A stretch of DNA of 64,000 nucleotides from Escherichia coli. GTDB taxonomy: Bacteria; Pseudomonadota; Gammaproteobacteria; Enterobacterales; Enterobacteriaceae. The position numbers were made by a program, and so were the translations under genes. Below, piece by piece: positions 21,597 to 26,129 of the stretch (the stretch's first letter is position 1; each line of letters starts with the position of its first letter). The DNA is taken from assembly GCF_050920415.1 (NCBI RefSeq), contig NZ_CP169309.1, one strand, 5' to 3'. The notes beneath the pieces were generated by a model. It did not search any database. It was not told the DNA's origin and was given only the letters and a program-made list of their open reading frames with translations.

Positions 21597-24041
21597 ATGC
21601 CAACACCAAGCATCATCAAAACACTCGCCACCCACCGCGAAAAACCGTTCGTCAGCGTCGTCACGCCAACATGGAACCGCGGCGCATTCCTCCCGTACCT
21701 GCTCTATATGTACCGCTATCAGGACTACCCGGCAGACCGCCGCGAACTGGTCATCCTTGACGACTCGCCGCAAAGCCATCAACACATCATCGACCGCCTG
21801 ACCAATGGCACGCCGGAAGCCTTTAACATCCGCTACATCCATCACCCGGAAAAACTGCCGCTGGGAAAAAAACGCAATATGCTCAACGAACTGGCGAGCG
21901 GCGAATATATCCTCTGCATGGATGACGACGACTACTACCCGGCAGATAAAATCTCTTACACCATCGCCATGATGCAAAAACACCGGGCGCTGATCTCCGG
22001 TTCCGACCAGATCCCCATCTGGTACAGCCATATCAACCGCATCTTTCAAAGCCGCAGCTTTGGCCCGCGTAACATCCTCAACGGCACCTTTTGTTATCAC
22101 CGTAACTACCTGAAAAAGCACCGTTACAATGACGATTGCAATTTAGGCGAAGAGAAAAGTTTCACCGACAATTTCAGCGTAAACCCGCTGCAACTGCCCG
22201 GCGAGCGCACGATTTTGTGTATTTCGCATAGCCACAACACCTTTGATAAAGACTTTATTCTCGGGGCCAGCACGCCAGTAAACGCGGCGCTTACGGATAT
22301 CGTCACCGATCCGCTGCTCCGCAATGCTTATCTGAGTCTGCATAACGCCACGCATCACCAGGGGATCAACCATCAGGCGATCTATCAGATCGTTCTGCTG
22401 AATCTGGATAAACGCCCGGATCGTTTACGGCAGATCCGTGAAGAGCTGGCATTGCTGCATATTCCGCCTGAAAAAATTACCCGCCTTGCCGCCTGTGAAG
22501 ATGAAAACGGTCAACGGGGCCGCCGCCTGTCGCACTTGCAGGCGCTACGCCTGGCGCAACAGCACGGCTGGCAAAACTATCTGCTGCTGGAAGATGACGC
22601 GGTTATTCTCAAGCAGGAGAAACATATTCAGGTGCTGAACACGCTGCTGGCGAGCCTGGCGAAAATTCCCTGGCAGGTGATGATCCTCGGAGGCGAAATT
22701 TCGCAAGGAACAATGCTAAAAAGCCTGCCGGGGCTGGTGCACGCGCAGGACTGCCGCAAAGTGTGCGCTTATCTGGTGAACAGCCGGTACTACCCACAAC
22801 TGGCGCAGCAGATGAGTAACGATGAGCACTCGCTGGAAGACGGCTGGCAGCCACTGCTGCGTGCCGACAAATGGCTGGCCTGTTACCCGAGCCTTAGTTA
22901 TCAGCGACCGGGCTTTAGCGATATCGAGAAAAAAGCGACTGATAACATTAACCACTACTTCAATAAGTTACCCGTAGCCACCAAGCCATCTACATTACCT
23001 ATCGCCGACACCATCGGCTTTTTAATGGAAACCTCATTCCACTACGCGCTCTATCGCCCAATCATCACCGCTCTACAGGCGCAGGGGCAGAGCTGCACGC
23101 TGGTGATCAACGACCGCGTGTTTAAACCGTTTCTGGATGAAATGCTGGAGACGCTAAAAACCATCGACGATCCGCAGCTCAAAGGTATGCGCTTGTCTGA
23201 GATGCAGGCACACGGTCAGCGGGTGAAATGCCTGGTCAGCCCCTACCACACGCCCGCGCTCAATGGCCTGGCAGCGGTGAACATCCGCGCTATGTACGGC
23301 TTAGCCAAAGAAACGTGGAACCACGCCGACTGGAACCGTTTTTATCAGCGCATTTTGTGTTATAGCCACTACAGTCAGCAGGCGCTGGCGCATTTCGGCA
23401 GCGCAAAAGTGGTCGGCAATCCACGCTTCGACGCCTGGCATAACGGCACGTTCGACCGTGCGTTGCCGGAAAATATCCAACCAGATTACCGTAAACCTAC
23501 GGTGCTCTACGCCCCAACATTTGGCGCATTAAGCTCCCTGCCCCACTGGGCAGAAAAATTGGGCCGCTTAAGCGGTGATGTGAACCTGATTTGCAAACTG
23601 CACCACGGTACCTGCTCGCGCCCGGAAGAAGCCGCATCGCTGACCCTGGCACGCAGGCATTTAAAGCAGAGCACCGACTCCGCCCGTCACACGCTGGCGA
23701 TGCTGGCAAAAGCCGATTACGTGCTCACCGATAACAGCGGCTTTATTTTCGATGCTATCCACGTTGATAAGCGGGTGATCCTGCTCGACTTTCCGGGCAT
23801 GACGGAACTGCTCGACGGTGAGAAAAGTTATTCCACACCGGAGAGCGCCGACCAGCGAATCCGCGAAATATTACCGGTGGCTCATGATATGGCTGAGCTG
23901 CGTTACTTATTGTCAGAGGCGTTTGACTGGGGGGCGGTACAGGCGCGGCTTACGGAGATTCGCCATCACTATTGTGACGCGTTTATGGATGGCAAGGCGG
24001 GAGAACGGGCGGCGATGGTGGTTGTGGAGGCATTGGGGTAA
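21597..24041 (+). CDS. Large multidomain glycosyltransferase (GT2-like N-terminus, GT25-like centre, TagB/TagF-like C-terminus); candidate flagellin-modification enzyme
   Basis: N-terminus …VSVVTPTWNRGAFLPYLL…ILDDSP… (GT-A fold); central …LLNLDKRPDRL…LLEDDAVI… (GT25-like); C-terminus …YAPTFG…KLHH…VLTDNSGFIFDA… resembling CDP-glycerol glycerophosphotransferases. Start taken at ATG 21597; the ORF extends back to 21531 across repeat C. Confidence 0.65.
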   Translation: MPTPSIIKTLATHREKPFVSVVTPTWNRGAFLPYLLYMYRYQDYPADRRELVILDDSPQSHQHIIDRLTNGTPEAFNIRYIHHPEKLPLGKKRNMLNELASGEYILCMDDDDYYPADKISYTIAMMQKHRALISGSDQIPIWYSHINRIFQSRSFGPRNILNGTFCYHRNYLKKHRYNDDCNLGEEKSFTDNFSVNPLQLPGERTILCISHSHNTFDKDFILGASTPVNAALTDIVTDPLLRNAYLSLHNATHHQGINHQAIYQIVLLNLDKRPDRLRQIREELALLHIPPEKITRLAACEDENGQRGRRLSHLQALRLAQQHGWQNYLLLEDDAVILKQEKHIQVLNTLLASLAKIPWQVMILGGEISQGTMLKSLPGLVHAQDCRKVCAYLVNSRYYPQLAQQMSNDEHSLEDGWQPLLRADKWLACYPSLSYQRPGFSDIEKKATDNINHYFNKLPVATKPSTLPIADTIGFLMETSFHYALYRPIITALQAQGQSCTLVINDRVFKPFLDEMLETLKTIDDPQLKGMRLSEMQAHGQRVKCLVSPYHTPALNGLAAVNIRAMYGLAKETWNHADWNRFYQRILCYSHYSQQALAHFGSAKVVGNPRFDAWHNGTFDRALPENIQPDYRKPTVLYAPTFGALSSLPHWAEKLGRLSGDVNLICKLHHGTCSRPEEAASLTLARRHLKQSTDSARHTLAMLAKADYVLTDNSGFIFDAIHVDKRVILLDFPGMTELLDGEKSYSTPESADQRIREILPVAHDMAELRYLLSEAFDWGAVQARLTEIRHHYCDAFMDGKAGERAAMVVVEALG

Positions 24042-24049
24042 ACCGCAGA

Positions 24050-24152
24050 AGTGCCTGATGCGCTACGCTTATCAGGCCTACACGCCCTTGCAATATAGTG
24101 AATTCGTGAGGATTTGTAGGCCGGATAAGGCGTTTACGCCGCATCCGGCACG
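24050..24152. repeat. BIME (two inverted REPs), paralogous to the one at 3365-3466
   Basis: gtgcctgatgcgctacgcttatcaggcctac … gtaggccggataaggcgtttacgccgcatccggca, with the same tgcaatata.tgaatt linker. Confidence 0.75.
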
Positions 24153-24367
24153 AACAGCGCACTTATCTACCCTTCGATTTTAAATACATCTCTTTATGGC
24201 TGGTGAATCGGTAAAGTCGTAGATTGTGGGGGAGCGATCTTTATGAATTCTGAAAAAACCCTGAATCTTGCTAAACATATTGCTTATCATAAATATAGGT
24301 TACACACTATAAAAATTACTGCGTAATTTAACATCTTGCCTAAAAATGATAGAGCGTAAACGATAAT

Positions 24368-25189: not shown

Positions 25190-25721
25190 CATTGTATTGA
25201 GAAGCTTTATTTTATTATTCATAATAATAGTGTATCCGGATTATAATAAAAACCCACCTGCCTTTGAAGTATATGGGGAAAATGACATACTTAAGGATAT
25301 GGTTATTAATATGAAAACTTATAGATACCATAGTAAGGAAAACTCTTCCCCCACAGCTATAGTGCAAACCATCCTTTTTAAAGGAAATATACAGCAAGTT
25401 TTTGAAAGCAATGACATGGGTGGTGCGAGCTTCTTTTTTTCTTATAATAATAAGGTTGAAACGCTGGTAACAGACGCTTTCTTTTTAAATAAAAAATTAG
25501 ACAAACTGCATGATGCAAATATTTTTGAGGTTATAAAGCATAAGGAAAACATCGTTATTAGATATTACAAGTGCAAAATTGAATATATGCAAAGAGAAAA
25601 ATTTATCGAAATAGAGATATCAACAAACAAAAATAGTTATTTTAACAAGAATGGAATAAAACAAAAAGATACAAATAAATATAACACATATTTCTTCAAT
25701 TACTTTGAGTCTCAAAAATAA
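25158..25721 (+). CDS. Hypothetical small membrane-anchored protein, partner of the upstream gene; AT-rich
   Basis: 187 aa; N-terminal hydrophobic segment (ISIVLRSFILLFIIIVY), Lys/Asn-rich remainder; overlaps the upstream gene (alternative start 25182 gives an 8-nt overlap). Confidence 0.45.
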   Translation: MITGRINQMISIVLRSFILLFIIIVYPDYNKNPPAFEVYGENDILKDMVINMKTYRYHSKENSSPTAIVQTILFKGNIQQVFESNDMGGASFFFSYNNKVETLVTDAFFLNKKLDKLHDANIFEVIKHKENIVIRYYKCKIEYMQREKFIEIEISTNKNSYFNKNGIKQKDTNKYNTYFFNYFESQK

Positions 25722-25724
25722 ATT

Positions 25725-26129
25725 TTATTTTGTCATGCGCGCCCTCCTAATCACCTCAATAATCCCCGTCGTCGACACCGACGGCGTGCGGGGGAAATAG
25801 ACCACCTCACAAATATACGCGAAGCTATCAAACTTCCCTGCCCAGTCATCGCCCATCACCAAAACATCCGCACTGTACCCCCGCAGATATTCCGCTTTCT
25901 GCGCCAGCGATTCCTCGAGAAATACGCCATCCACGCACGCCAGCCCGGCGATAATCGCCATGCGGTCATCCTGAGGGTAAACCGGTGCCCTGCCCTTTTT
26001 GGCAATATTTAAGGCGTCGGACGACACGCCAACCAGCAGCCGTTCGCCCAGCGTGCGGGCGCGTTGTAAAAGGCGCAGATGACCGACATGAAACACATCG
26101 AAGGTGCCGAAGGTGATGACCGTTTTCAT
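25725..26129 (-). CDS. Cytidylyltransferase, TagD/glycerol-3-phosphate cytidylyltransferase-like
   Basis: Start at internal Met (MKTVITFGTFDVFHVGHLRLL…); HxGH nucleotidyltransferase motif; 134 aa; begins 3 nt after the fliJ stop. Confidence 0.75.
   Translation of the reverse strand: MKTVITFGTFDVFHVGHLRLLQRARTLGERLLVGVSSDALNIAKKGRAPVYPQDDRMAIIAGLACVDGVFLEESLAQKAEYLRGYSADVLVMGDDWAGKFDSFAYICEVVYFPRTPSVSTTGIIEVIRRARMTK

Follow-up and report, generated by a model that had tools for sequence, protein, structure and literature searches.

Transfer of a CDP-activated phospho-group to a flagellin sugar has been proposed for two TagF-like enzymes, C. difficile CD0244 and the C-terminal region of FgtA from P. 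aeruginosa (PMC10714395), and in P. aeruginosa PAO1, where the system is encoded by PA1088-PA1091, FgtA (PA1091) is a fused glycosyltransferase (GT) and TagF-like phosphotransferase (PMC4441256, PMC10714395). For the second, lateral flagellar system, Flag-2, De Maayer, Pillay and Coutinho (2020, BMC Genomics 21:100; PMC6993521) listed TagD (235 strains), TagB (65 strains), LafV and the commonest glycosyltransferase, GT2-1 (222 strains), in variable region VR1, and suggested that the flagellin glycan resembles teichoic acid. The function of Flag-2 has been described as not understood (PMC11420993).

The window, that is the whole 64-kb stretch of DNA analysed, is the E. coli Flag-2 (lateral, second flagellar) gene cluster, and the module considered here lies in its VR1. 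A sequence-only reading had suggested that lateral flagellin or its glycan is decorated from a CDP-activated polyol-phosphate donor. This is supported, computationally, by domain searches, by profile and structure comparison and by comparative genomics, the domain searches having recovered both the TagF-like and the cytidylyltransferase homology. Most likely, the lateral flagellin is decorated by an enzyme that makes CDP-glycerol together with a sugar/glycerol-phosphate transferase of three domains. A flagellin-glycan 'phospho-cap' module of E. coli Flag-2 is the best explanation of the data, and we put its probability at roughly 0.55 on this computational support. Decoration of flagellin with glycerol-phosphate is plausible and not a new interpretation; the idea was less novel than the earlier reading had assumed because it is in print as a genomic prediction (PMC6993521). 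New here are the TagF-like domain carried by the commonest VR1 glycosyltransferase itself, the tracking of TagD with an intact TagF-like domain across 33 bracketed loci, a clade-wide tyrosine (Y567) at the position of the TagF catalytic His444, a conserved sigma54-type element ahead of lafV-GT, and an architecture parallel to that of P. aeruginosa FgtA and of C. difficile CD0240 plus CD0244 (type A flagellin glycan). The features concerned are as follows.

3475-4389, minus strand: lafA, lateral flagellin, 304 aa (NF033376, 667 bits)
20430-20444, plus strand: candidate sigma54-type -24/-12 element CGGCACGCTTATTGC, upstream of lafV-GT, assigned on consensus match and conservation only
20480-21409, plus strand: lafV, FliB_C-only lysine-methylase-like, upstream of the GT gene; alternative TTG start at 20441
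21597-24041, plus strand: open reading frame of the three-domain transferase, 814 aa (815 codons when the stop is counted), GT2-1 of De Maayer 2020
21645-22361, plus strand: GT2 (GT-A fold) domain, about aa 17-255, DXD-type motif D109-D112
22362-23006, plus strand: middle GT-A-type domain, remotely GT25-like, about aa 256-470, with NLDKRPDR, SH and LLLEDD motifs
23004-24038, plus strand: TagF/TagB-like (CDP-glycerol glycerophosphotransferase family) domain, aa 470-814, from profile, structure and relatives
24368-25721, plus strand: two cargo ORFs of low GC (0.376), one of 273 aa and one of about 180 aa, between the GT gene and tagD
25725-26129, minus strand: tagD-like cytidylyltransferase, 134 aa, last gene of the lafK-fliEFGHIJ string, from homology and motifs
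26132-26566, minus strand: fliJ (lfiJ), from sequence (TIGR02473, 58 bits)

The three-domain transferase

In an E. coli genome of 99.9% identity PGAP labels the transferase 'glycosyltransferase'; its orthologues are 51-95% identical in Escherichia, Citrobacter, Enterobacter, Leminorella and Atlantibacter, and 38% identical in Plesiomonas. It had been described from the sequence as an 815-aa combination of GT2-like, GT25-like and TagB/TagF-like regions. The first and last of these stand, the length becomes 814 aa once the stop codon is discounted, and the GT25-like part holds only as a remote resemblance. The N-terminal domain belongs to GT2 by its match to the Pfam family model (PF00535, residues 20-134, E 6e-17), its GT-A fold and its DXD motif. 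The middle domain of the query gave no Pfam match, and PF01755 was matched at E<=0.001 by 1 of 20 orthologous middle domains (best 6e-7). It is clearly homologous, however, with stand-alone 223-aa 'GT25 (weak)' proteins that adjoin fliJ elsewhere, including in Leminorella (hhalign probability 100%, E 4e-45), and its EDD motif is preserved in the long forms but varies in the short ones. The GT25-like region is the weakest part of the three-domain assignment, and the label is a remote one.

The C-terminal domain carries the motifs GNPRFD, YAPTFG, KLHHG and TDNSGFIFD. Alone, the query matched PF04464 (Glyphos_transf) marginally or not significantly (residues 605-728, E 0.008-0.041). The same family was matched at E<=0.001 by 29 of 30 clade members, and a family profile of the domain matched the solved structures of Cps3D (E 2e-15), TagF (4.5e-13) and TarL (3e-8). 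An AF2 model (pLDDT 95.3) has the TagF-type two-Rossmann (GT-B-like) fold, with TagF 3L7I/J/K as best PDB matches (E 7e-11, TMq 0.65-0.69), followed by TarL, and nearly all AFDB50 neighbours are annotated as CDP-glycerol glycerophosphotransferase. Because the relatives' Pfam matches, the profile, the model and the structural neighbours agree, we regard the TagF-like assignment as firm. The pyrophosphate-binding His584 of TagF aligns with the invariant H669 in K-L-H-H. The catalytic-base His444 of TagF (His300 of TarL, in 'QxWHG') is not kept, its position being taken by an invariant tyrosine in 30 clade members; hhalign pairs R-A-M-Y567-G with the Q-L-W-H-G motif in a canonical TarF-like protein, and a tyrosine likewise aligns at the His444 position in the Burkholderia flagellar Glyphos_transf protein. 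With this substitution the chemistry or the acceptor may differ, or the domain might conceivably lack catalytic activity.

The cytidylyltransferase and neighbouring elements

The tagD product is probably a glycerol-3-phosphate cytidylyltransferase (EC 2.7.7.39), to judge from its homologies. Its residues 1-127 are 46% identical to residues 1-126 of B. subtilis TagD (1COZ, E 3.4e-31), and identity to 2B7L is 41% (E 7e-27). The HxGH motif noticed by the sequence-only reading is there as H14-V-G-H17, and both it and R114-TPSVSTT-121 (RTxxxSTT) are kept in all flag-2 orthologues; K44, the R55-equivalent and DDW are further conserved features. The best NCBIfam family is TIGR01518 at 112.3 bits, below the equivalog cut-off of 165.4 bits, with the RfaE domain II family next at 73 bits, and the best-match scores are 111 bits for TagD and 65 for ethanolamine-phosphate cytidylyltransferase. 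PGAP names the product only as an 'adenylyltransferase/cytidyltransferase family protein'. K44 and K46 of B. subtilis TagD are, we take it, the catalytic loop lysines; Lys46 and Trp74 are not conserved here, G46 (with K45 and R47 beside it) and L75 standing in their places, and a 'KKxR' loop pattern, with K44 kept and Gly at 46, is conserved in the flag-2 TagD clade.

As had been read from the sequence, tagD ends the lafK-fliEFGHIJ string, and lafK, fliE, F, G, H, I, J and tagD all run in the same direction. The fliJ stop codon TAG (26134-26132) is separated from the tagD ATG at 26129 by a 2-nt spacer, so that the distance of 3 nt first given was essentially right, and a Shine-Dalgarno sequence, GGAG, at 26138-26135 lies within the 3' end of fliJ. 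This arrangement suggests translational coupling of tagD to fliJ.

On the transferase side, the element CGGCACGCTTATTGC has one mismatch to TGGCAC-N5-TTGC, and GGCAY-N5-TTGC is kept at the same site upstream of lafV in Escherichia, Pseudocitrobacter, Citrobacter, Leminorella and others, and also upstream of the Plesiomonas GT gene. LafV matches NCBIfam NF038110 below the cut-off (E 2.6e-11, profile positions 107-364 of 373), and Pfam FliB_C is matched in its orthologues. LafA, the presumed acceptor, has 32% Ser/Thr in its central residues 121-240. The two cargo ORFs probably lie outside the module; searches of NCBIfam, PADLOC and PHROGs gave no matches and there was a weak DUF4347 match only, and these ORFs are absent from other species' loci, with other hypothetical genes in their stead in E. 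coli Esc31.

Distribution and co-variation of TagD and the TagF-like domain

Both genes are real and conserved. Of 5426 complete E. coli genomes, 1276 carry tagD and 1279 the TagF-like domain (1276 at a coverage of at least 80%), with catalytic motifs intact in about 1276 at 91-100% DNA identity. Co-variation was analysed in 33 loci with VR1 bracketed. TagD, and with it a co-encoded source of CDP-glycerol, is present in the same VR1 in 21 of the 22 loci with an intact TagF-like domain and is missing from 10 of the 11 in which the domain is absent or degenerate (Fisher p 1e-6, which is descriptive only because the loci are related). The exceptions are L025, with the domain and no TagD, and L036, with TagD and no domain; L025 apart, every TagD-less locus has a TagF-like domain that is absent, swapped or degenerate. 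Within Citrobacter, the fused domain and TagD occur together in L014-L018, and TagD is lacking both where the GT is short (L003) and where its C-terminal part has been exchanged for Capsule_synth (L002). Leminorella (L026) and C. freundii M-21 (L027) have degenerate catalytic motifs and no TagD. The TagF-like protein of Erwinia, Rahnella and Buttiauxella is encoded by its own gene in the same VR1 as TagD, which constitutes Rosetta-stone evidence, and in the minimal VR1 of Pseudescherichia vulneris (L024) the flgN-fliJ interval consists of the GT gene and tagD only.

More distant relatives also bear on donor and acceptor. The intact Plesiomonas orthologue is found beside phosphoramidate-pathway-like genes, not TagD, and thus the donor of the TagF-like domain is not necessarily CDP-glycerol everywhere. 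In Burkholderia oklahomensis a short GT of 45% identity belongs to a type-A-like cluster (FliB-like, methyltransferase, HAD, IspD-like nucleotidyltransferase and Glyphos_transf) directly upstream of a flagellin gene, and a stand-alone 34%-identical relative adjoins flagellin genes on another contig.

A proposed mechanism and its relation to known systems

Domain homologies, fold, gene linkage and co-variation are as observed above; for the substrates, the sugar, the acceptor, the number of glycerol-phosphate units and expression we infer the following. TagD would convert CTP and sn-glycerol-3-phosphate into CDP-glycerol in the cytoplasm, and the GT2 domain, possibly with the GT25-like middle domain, would add one or two sugars to Ser/Thr residues of LafA before export. 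The fused TagF-like domain would then use CDP-glycerol to place glycerol-phosphate (+154 Da) on the LafA sugar, releasing CMP. Substrates of flagellar type III export are unfolded, and a long anionic polymer would fit poorly with such passage. Because flagellin must traverse the export channel in this state, the product is predicted to be a short phosphodiester-linked cap and not a long teichoic-acid polymer. Expression would be linked to the flagellar hierarchy, that of tagD through its coupling to fliJ at the end of lafK-fliE-J and that of lafV-GT through its own conserved sigma54-type promoter element.

Of the alternatives, the one that survives best, while still unlikely, is that the target is not LafA (being another axial or cytoplasmic protein, or an envelope glycan) or that the module is effectively silent since Flag-2 is cryptic in E. 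coli. The sequence data name no acceptor, the function and expression of Flag-2 in Escherichia are described as unresolved (PMC11420993), and decay of the TagF-like domain is tolerated in Leminorella and C. freundii M-21. However, the module lies strictly within flagellar loci across genera, and its relatives adjoin flagellin genes. The conservation of the sigma54-type element and the coupling of tagD to fliJ also count against this alternative, as do catalytic motifs that remain intact in about 1276 E. coli genomes and the lack of lipid-carrier (TagO/TagA-like) or exporter genes in the locus.

A slightly less probable reading is that the cytidylyltransferase activates some other polyol- or amino-alcohol-phosphate, the cap then being phospho-X and not glycerol-phosphate. 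The score under the equivalog cut-off, the generic PGAP name, the loss of K46 and W74, and the fact that in Plesiomonas and Burkholderia the clade's TagF-like domains adjoin different CDP-X pathways would all suit it. Yet TagD is by far the best match in both comparisons (111 against 65 bits, 112 against 73 bits), with 46% similarity across the full length, and while VR1 has no gene that would supply an unusual phospho-substrate, glycerol-3-phosphate belongs to central metabolism.

Least probable, by a small margin, is that these enzymes assemble on the flagellin glycan a genuine poly(glycerol-phosphate) chain of the teichoic-acid type, as in the 'glycopolymers' of De Maayer et al. (PMC6993521): the closest solved relatives, TagF and TarL, are polymerases, and some loci (Rahnella L037) add a canonical TarF-like QLWHG gene beside the Tyr-type one, a pair that could be primer plus extender, but E. 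coli has the Tyr-type domain only, which at 345 aa is the size of a single-addition enzyme and does not have TagF's additional N-terminal domain. The type A glycan, which is the characterised analogue, gains one phospho-group, and a long anionic polymer is hard to fit through the flagellar type III channel.

The short glycerol-phosphate cap that we favour can be set against three described cases. With wall teichoic acid synthesis by TagD and TagB/TagF/TarF in Bacillus and Staphylococcus, and with TagF-like capsule polymerases (Cps3D and others), the module has the TagD-TagF pairing in common, and it shares the TagF fold, the His584-equivalent, GxPRxD, PT and (S/T)D(Y/N)SG..FD. It differs in missing the lipid-carrier steps (TagO, TagA), the ABC exporter and the membrane-binding N-terminal domain, in its acceptor, presumably a protein-linked sugar in the cytoplasm, and in having Tyr for His444; no TagO/TagA priming or TagGH export genes were found in the 25-kb annotated region or among the VR1 ORFs. 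The survey of De Maayer 2020 dealt with the same genes and reached the same conclusion of teichoic-acid-type chemistry on flag-2 flagellin, but it treated GT2-1 as a GT2 enzyme with TagB separate and did not report the TagF-like domain of GT2-1, the co-variation of this domain with TagD, the decay of the motifs, the change to Tyr or the FgtA parallel.

The type A system (CD0240-CD0244, PA1088-PA1091) differs in its activating enzyme, which is of the NTP_transferase/IspD type there and of the TagD type (PF01467, HxGH) here, and in its cap, which is phospho-N-methyl-threonine there and predicted to be glycerol-phosphate here, whereas the extra GT25-like middle domain and the lateral (Flag-2) flagellum are found only here. 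No HAD (phosphoserine-phosphatase-like), NTP_transferase-type cytidylyltransferase or N-methyltransferase gene was found between flgN and fliJ in the window. The sequence comparison with type A was made against the Burkholderia cluster of the same gene content, as a proxy for CD0240, CD0244 and PA1091. In architecture, the module would match type A in combining a putative flagellin O-glycosyltransferase, a TagF-like phosphotransferase and a dedicated cytidylyltransferase, and FgtA, as described in PMC10714395, brings both transferase activities together in one polypeptide, as is predicted for the 814-aa protein.

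Position and possible regulation of the module in the Flag-2 locus

This Escherichia coli DNA carries the Flag-2 locus for a secondary, lateral-type flagellum, and the sequence-only reading had proposed that its flagellin is decorated by a glycerol-phosphate-type module. Domain content, predicted fold, the co-variation of TagD with a TagF-like domain and the flagellar context all support that reading, as far as sequence analysis goes. The idea has been in print before: from a survey in which variable region 1 (VR1) encoded TagD in 235 strains and TagB in 65, De Maayer et al. (2020; PMC6993521) deduced that flag-2 flagellin bears glycopolymers of the teichoic-acid type, and NCBI names some orthologues of the large protein (for example P0041) 'bifunctional glycosyltransferase family 2 protein/CDP-glycerol:glycerophosphate glycerophosphotransferase'. 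Added here are the location of the TagF-like domain within the commonest VR1 glycosyltransferase, its co-variation with TagD and the decay of its motifs where TagD is lost, a Tyr in place of the catalytic His, an apparent parallel with FgtA/CD0244, a conserved sigma54 element before lafV and the glycosyltransferase gene (GT), and what appears to be a modular donor. VR1 was defined as lying between lfiJ and lfgN (De Maayer et al., 2020; PMC6993521), which places the GT–TagD module within it.

Gene order in the Flag-2 locus (RefSeq annotation with ORF and family scans)
lafA, flgL to flgB: minus strand
flgA: plus strand
16705-19463: Dcm / EcoRII-like restriction-modification pair, inserted after flgA
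flgM, flgN, lafV (FliB-like; 20441-21409), 814-aa glycosyltransferase (21597-24041): all plus strand
24368-25189 and 25158/25182-25721: two low-GC hypothetical ORFs after the glycosyltransferase, plus strand
25725-26129: TagD-like gene, followed in the locus by fliJ, fliI, fliH, fliG, fliF, fliE and lafK: minus strand

A sigma54-type -24/-12 element, CGGCACGCTTATTGC, lies in the flgN–lafV interval (20430-20444, plus strand). Its GGCAY-N5-TTGC core is kept at the same position 5' of lafV in Escherichia, Pseudocitrobacter, Citrobacter, Leminorella and others, with divergent flanks, and is also present upstream of the Plesiomonas GT. We regard this element as a candidate LafK-dependent promoter of lafV–GT and, because tagD ends the lafK-fliE-J string, the consensus match and its conservation suggest a place in the LafK/sigma54 tier for each half of the module. 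A search for sigma28-type promoters around flgM, lafV and GT gave no convincing site (at least four mismatches everywhere), and generic sigma70 and terminator scans did not rise above shuffled expectation. As had been read from the sequence, a TagD-like cytidylyltransferase with an HxGH motif is encoded just after fliJ: the fliJ stop (26134-26132) is followed by a 2-nt spacer and the tagD ATG at 26129, with a GGAG within the fliJ 3' end, and this spacing and GGAG indicate that tagD is translationally coupled to fliJ. The loci of Escherichia, Citrobacter and Enterobacter likewise have tagD immediately after fliJ, and in Erwinia and Rahnella fliJ, GT, lafV and tagD are all co-directional. One locus (L011, Escherichia sp. 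E1V33) holds extra partial tagD-like fragments (84-89% identity) besides the intact gene, probably remnants of duplication or recombination in VR1.

The slot between GT and tagD is hypervariable cargo within an otherwise conserved module. Its two ORFs (GC 0.376) were considered as module members and rejected: they are not conserved with the module, a search of NCBIfam, PADLOC and PHROGs returned no match, and the only family match is a weak one of the 273-aa ORF to DUF4347 (E 2.4e-4). The exact arrangement of this interval is common to only about 144 E. coli genomes, others having different hypothetical genes there. The lafV–GT spacer (187 nt, compared with 46 nt in E. coli Esc31) is filled at about 21420-21545 by a GC-rich inverted-repeat element, which we take to be boxC-like, and two REP/BIME-type palindromes follow the GT stop at about 24050-24150; such REP elements probably explain partial matches to the 7.5-kb query in 5425 of 5426 E. 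coli genomes. LafV aligns, below cut-off, with just a C-terminal stretch of the model for the lysine methylase FliB (positions 107-364 of 373), so that the FliB N-terminal part is missing, and LafA (3475-4389) has only seven lysines, none of them in the presumed surface-exposed residues 93-233.

Over 19500-27000 the window shares 99.9% identity with E. coli MFDS1022581 and 91-97% with numerous further chromosomes of the species. DNA identity to most E. coli copies is just 91-93%, only one E. coli genome reaches at least 99%, and the module proteins are nearer (95-96%) to those of loci labelled Pseudocitrobacter, a pattern suggesting that the Flag-2 allele has diverged or been exchanged, or else that assemblies are mislabelled. 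The type II restriction-modification pair between flgA and flgM (GC about 0.43) comprises a Dcm-type cytosine methyltransferase (NF007772, 914 bits) and an EcoRII-like endonuclease (PADLOC REase_II, E 2e-179); an insertion of this kind is known from 21 Escherichia strains (De Maayer et al., 2020; PMC6993521). In variable region 2 a low-GC ORF in the lafA / lafW-like interval (4875-5717, plus strand) encodes a CadC/OmpR-type winged-helix DNA-binding region (E 8.5e-9) and is a possible locus-specific regulator.

Domains of the 814-aa transferase

The large ORF proposed for 21597-24041 is present, its 815 codons including the stop, and the three-domain architecture ascribed to its 814-aa product (GT2, remote GT25-like and TagF-like) is a fair description of which the GT25-like part is the weakest. 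Residues 20-134 match Pfam GT2 (E 6e-17), with a DDDD motif (109-112) that is invariant across homologues. The middle domain (about residues 256-470) has no Pfam GT25 match in the query; PF01755 is reached by one of 20 orthologous middle domains (6e-7), and a PDB search with the domain's sequence profile gave nothing significant, the best match being mimivirus R655 (E 0.09). This domain is homologous to small stand-alone 'GT25 (weak)' proteins (hhalign probability 100%, E 4e-45), which in Citrobacter and Leminorella occupy the slot beside fliJ, and the model of the N-terminal 470 residues (pLDDT 86) is a tandem pair of GT-A-type domains. We keep the label 'GT25-like' as a remote one.

The C-terminal third of the query matches Pfam Glyphos_transf weakly when taken alone (E 0.041 and 0.008). 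An exhaustive search with residues 470-814 gave 757 relatives at E ≤ 1e-3, of which 30 were aligned as the basis of a profile and an AlphaFold model; 29 of these 30 match Glyphos_transf. The profile matches solved TagF-like enzymes (Cps3D 2e-15, TagF 4.5e-13, TarL 3e-8), and the model (mean pLDDT 95.3) finds TagF structures as its best PDB matches (E 7e-11, TMq 0.65-0.69), followed by TarL and then by fold-related UDP-GlcNAc 2-epimerases. Virtually all of its non-orthologous AFDB50 neighbours carry the annotation CDP-glycerol glycerophosphotransferase. The clade retains the equivalent of TagF His584 (H669, in KLHH) and the GxPRxD, PT and (S/T)D(Y/N)SGxxFD motifs, while the position of the TagF catalytic base His444 (QxWHG; His300 in TarL) is held by an invariant Tyr (RAMY567G). 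In an hhalign comparison Y567 stands opposite the His of QLWHG in the canonical TarF-like protein of Rahnella VR1, and the Burkholderia flagellar Glyphos_transf protein also aligns a Tyr there. We read this Tyr as functional, rather than as the sign of an inactive domain, because it is invariant and decays together with the other motifs upon TagD loss. Speculatively, a sugar hydroxyl could be the target of Tyr-type enzymes, with His-type enzymes extending glycerol-phosphate chains, and the coexistence of both types in Rahnella fits such a division into primer and extender. The VR1 of Rahnella laticis (locus L037, 12343-16141) contains TagD and two TagF-family genes, a canonical TarF-like gene with QLWHG (12796-14010) and a Tyr-type gene homologous to the C-terminal domain of the E. 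coli protein (15047-16141; 48% identity), which may form a primer plus extender pair.

Co-variation of TagD and the TagF-like domain

A scan of one genome per species gave 36 loci with a relative of the 814-aa protein, which were scored for TagD, the TagF-like domain and key residues. Co-occurrence was counted over non-redundant loci whose VR1 is fully bracketed by fliJ and flgN, leaving out two that are truncated after GT (L019, L020) and two that meet contig ends (L009, L012). An intact TagF-like domain is accompanied by TagD in 21 bracketed loci, and in 10 the domain is missing or degenerate and TagD is absent; an intact TagF-like domain without TagD was seen once (L025, a MAG), as was TagD without a detectable TagF-like domain (L036). 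The association has a Fisher p of 1e-6, a value that is descriptive only since the loci are phylogenetically related. Within Citrobacter, L014-L018 and others have the fused enzyme and TagD, L003 and L004 have a 473-aa enzyme that ends without the TagF-like domain and no TagD, and L002, also lacking TagD, has a C-terminal Capsule_synth domain of the KpsC/KpsS type. The VR1 of Pseudescherichia vulneris (L024) consists of GT and TagD alone. Erwinia, Rahnella and Buttiauxella have a separate gene for the TagF-like protein in the same VR1 as TagD; such separate and fused forms are, at the sequence level, a fusion/fission signature of functional partners. Full-length orthologues from Leminorella grimontii (L026/L007) and C. 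freundii M-21 (L027) keep the C-terminal domain in loci that have no TagD, and their motifs are altered (Y567 to P/A, T641 to S/A, K667 to L/V, S714/G715 to D/A or R/A), so the domain appears to be decaying following loss of the donor pathway. Among complete E. coli genomes tagD is found in 1276 of 5426 and the TagF-like segment in 1279 (1276 at ≥80% coverage), and the genes that separate GT and tagD differ among strains.

Proposed mechanism and relation to known flagellin glycans

We propose that TagD, by its homology, would make CDP-glycerol; that the GT2 domain, perhaps together with the GT25-like one, would glycosylate Ser/Thr of LafA in the cytoplasm; and that the C-terminal domain, assigned by family, fold and TagD linkage, would place glycerol-phosphate from this predicted donor on the predicted sugar acceptor. 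To this mechanism as a whole we give a probability of about 0.55. The argument for LafA as the acceptor comes from context: every genus examined has the module inside a flagellar locus, a stand-alone relative (34% identical) adjoins flagellin genes in a csrA-flagellin context, and residues 121-240 of the 304-aa LafA are 32% Ser/Thr. Two distant stand-alone relatives (P0149, P0164) lie on contigs too short for their surroundings to be informative. Alongside this evidence, a target other than flagellin, or a module that is silent, seems rather unlikely.

Another possibility is that the cytidylyltransferase uses a different phospho-substrate, which we also consider improbable. Bearing on it are the best NCBIfam match of the 134-aa protein, TIGR01518 (glycerol-3-phosphate cytidylyltransferase), at 112 bits with an equivalog cut-off of 165 (next, RfaE domain II at 73), and the lack of K46 and W74, the KKxR loop being conserved in all flag-2 orthologues. 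For glycerol-3-phosphate speak the solved structures that are by far the best matches, those of B. subtilis TagD (46% identity over the full length, E 3e-31) and S. aureus TarD (41%), with ethanolamine-phosphate cytidylyltransferase next at 1e-17, and the retention of HxGH, RTxxxSTT, K44, the R55 equivalent and DDW; the Pfam family is CTP_transf_like (E 7e-19). As for the product, a true poly(glycerol-phosphate) chain is likewise improbable: we favour one or a few glycerol-phosphate units because the domain is small, the precedent of the type A system adds one phospho-group and flagellin is exported unfolded. A wall-teichoic-acid pathway was rejected, the locus having no carrier-lipid or export genes.

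The donor supplied by TagD need not be the only one. In a Plesiomonas sp. MAG (L005, 6001-13618) an 841-aa orthologue with intact Tyr-type motifs has no TagD beside it; its neighbours are homologous to phosphoramidate-pathway genes of C. jejuni (one kinase-like, PRK05849, at 901 bits; one resembling gamma-glutamyl-CDP-amidate hydrolase, E 4e-32; and an NTP_transferase), with a MotB gene nearby. This gene content may reflect a flagellin glycan whose cap is of the phosphoramidate type or otherwise derived from CDP, and suggests that the TagF-like domain takes whichever CDP-activated donor the neighbouring genes supply; the assignment of CDP-glycerol is thus supported where TagD adjoins and should not be assumed everywhere. 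Tentatively, Tyr-type domains could form a distinct clade of cytoplasmic, glycoprotein-directed phospho-group transferases, modular with neighbouring CDP-X enzymes and decaying when the donor pathway is lost, so as to yield a combinatorial 'phospho-cap code' on flagellin glycans: glycerol-phosphate by way of TagD in Escherichia and Citrobacter, a cap from Cj1416-1418-like phosphoramidate genes in Plesiomonas, and a phospho-amino acid by way of HAD and IspD-like enzymes in Burkholderia, Pseudomonas and Clostridioides.

No demonstration of glycerol-phosphate on any flagellin was found in the literature searched, which makes the prediction testable and mildly interesting, although a specialist would not be surprised by it, and practical impact is limited, since the central idea has appeared in print as a prediction from annotation. 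Confirmation would make it the first demonstrated case of glycerol-phosphate (teichoic-acid chemistry) on a flagellin, from a module that roughly one in four complete E. coli genomes has, as do many strains of Citrobacter and Enterobacter. It would also yield a compact enzyme for adding phosphodiester caps to sugars attached to protein, and would pose the mechanistic question of how Tyr replaces the catalytic His. The closest known systems are the type A clusters of C. difficile (CD0240-0244) and P. aeruginosa PAO1 (PA1088-1091), in which the TagF-like CD0244 or the C-terminal part of FgtA (PA1091) is proposed to transfer CDP-activated phospho-threonine to GlcNAc or a deoxyhexose on flagellin (PMC10714395). 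The same gene content is found in Burkholderia oklahomensis, where a cluster immediately upstream of a flagellin gene encodes a two-domain GT (45% identical), a FliB-like protein, a methyltransferase, a SerB/ThrH-like HAD protein, an IspD-like nucleotidyltransferase and a separate Glyphos_transf protein. The architecture of the E. coli 814-aa enzyme parallels that described for FgtA/CD0244 (PMC10714395) and, if confirmed, its activity would extend type A phospho-capped flagellin glycans from Clostridioides and Pseudomonas to the lateral flagella of enterobacteria.
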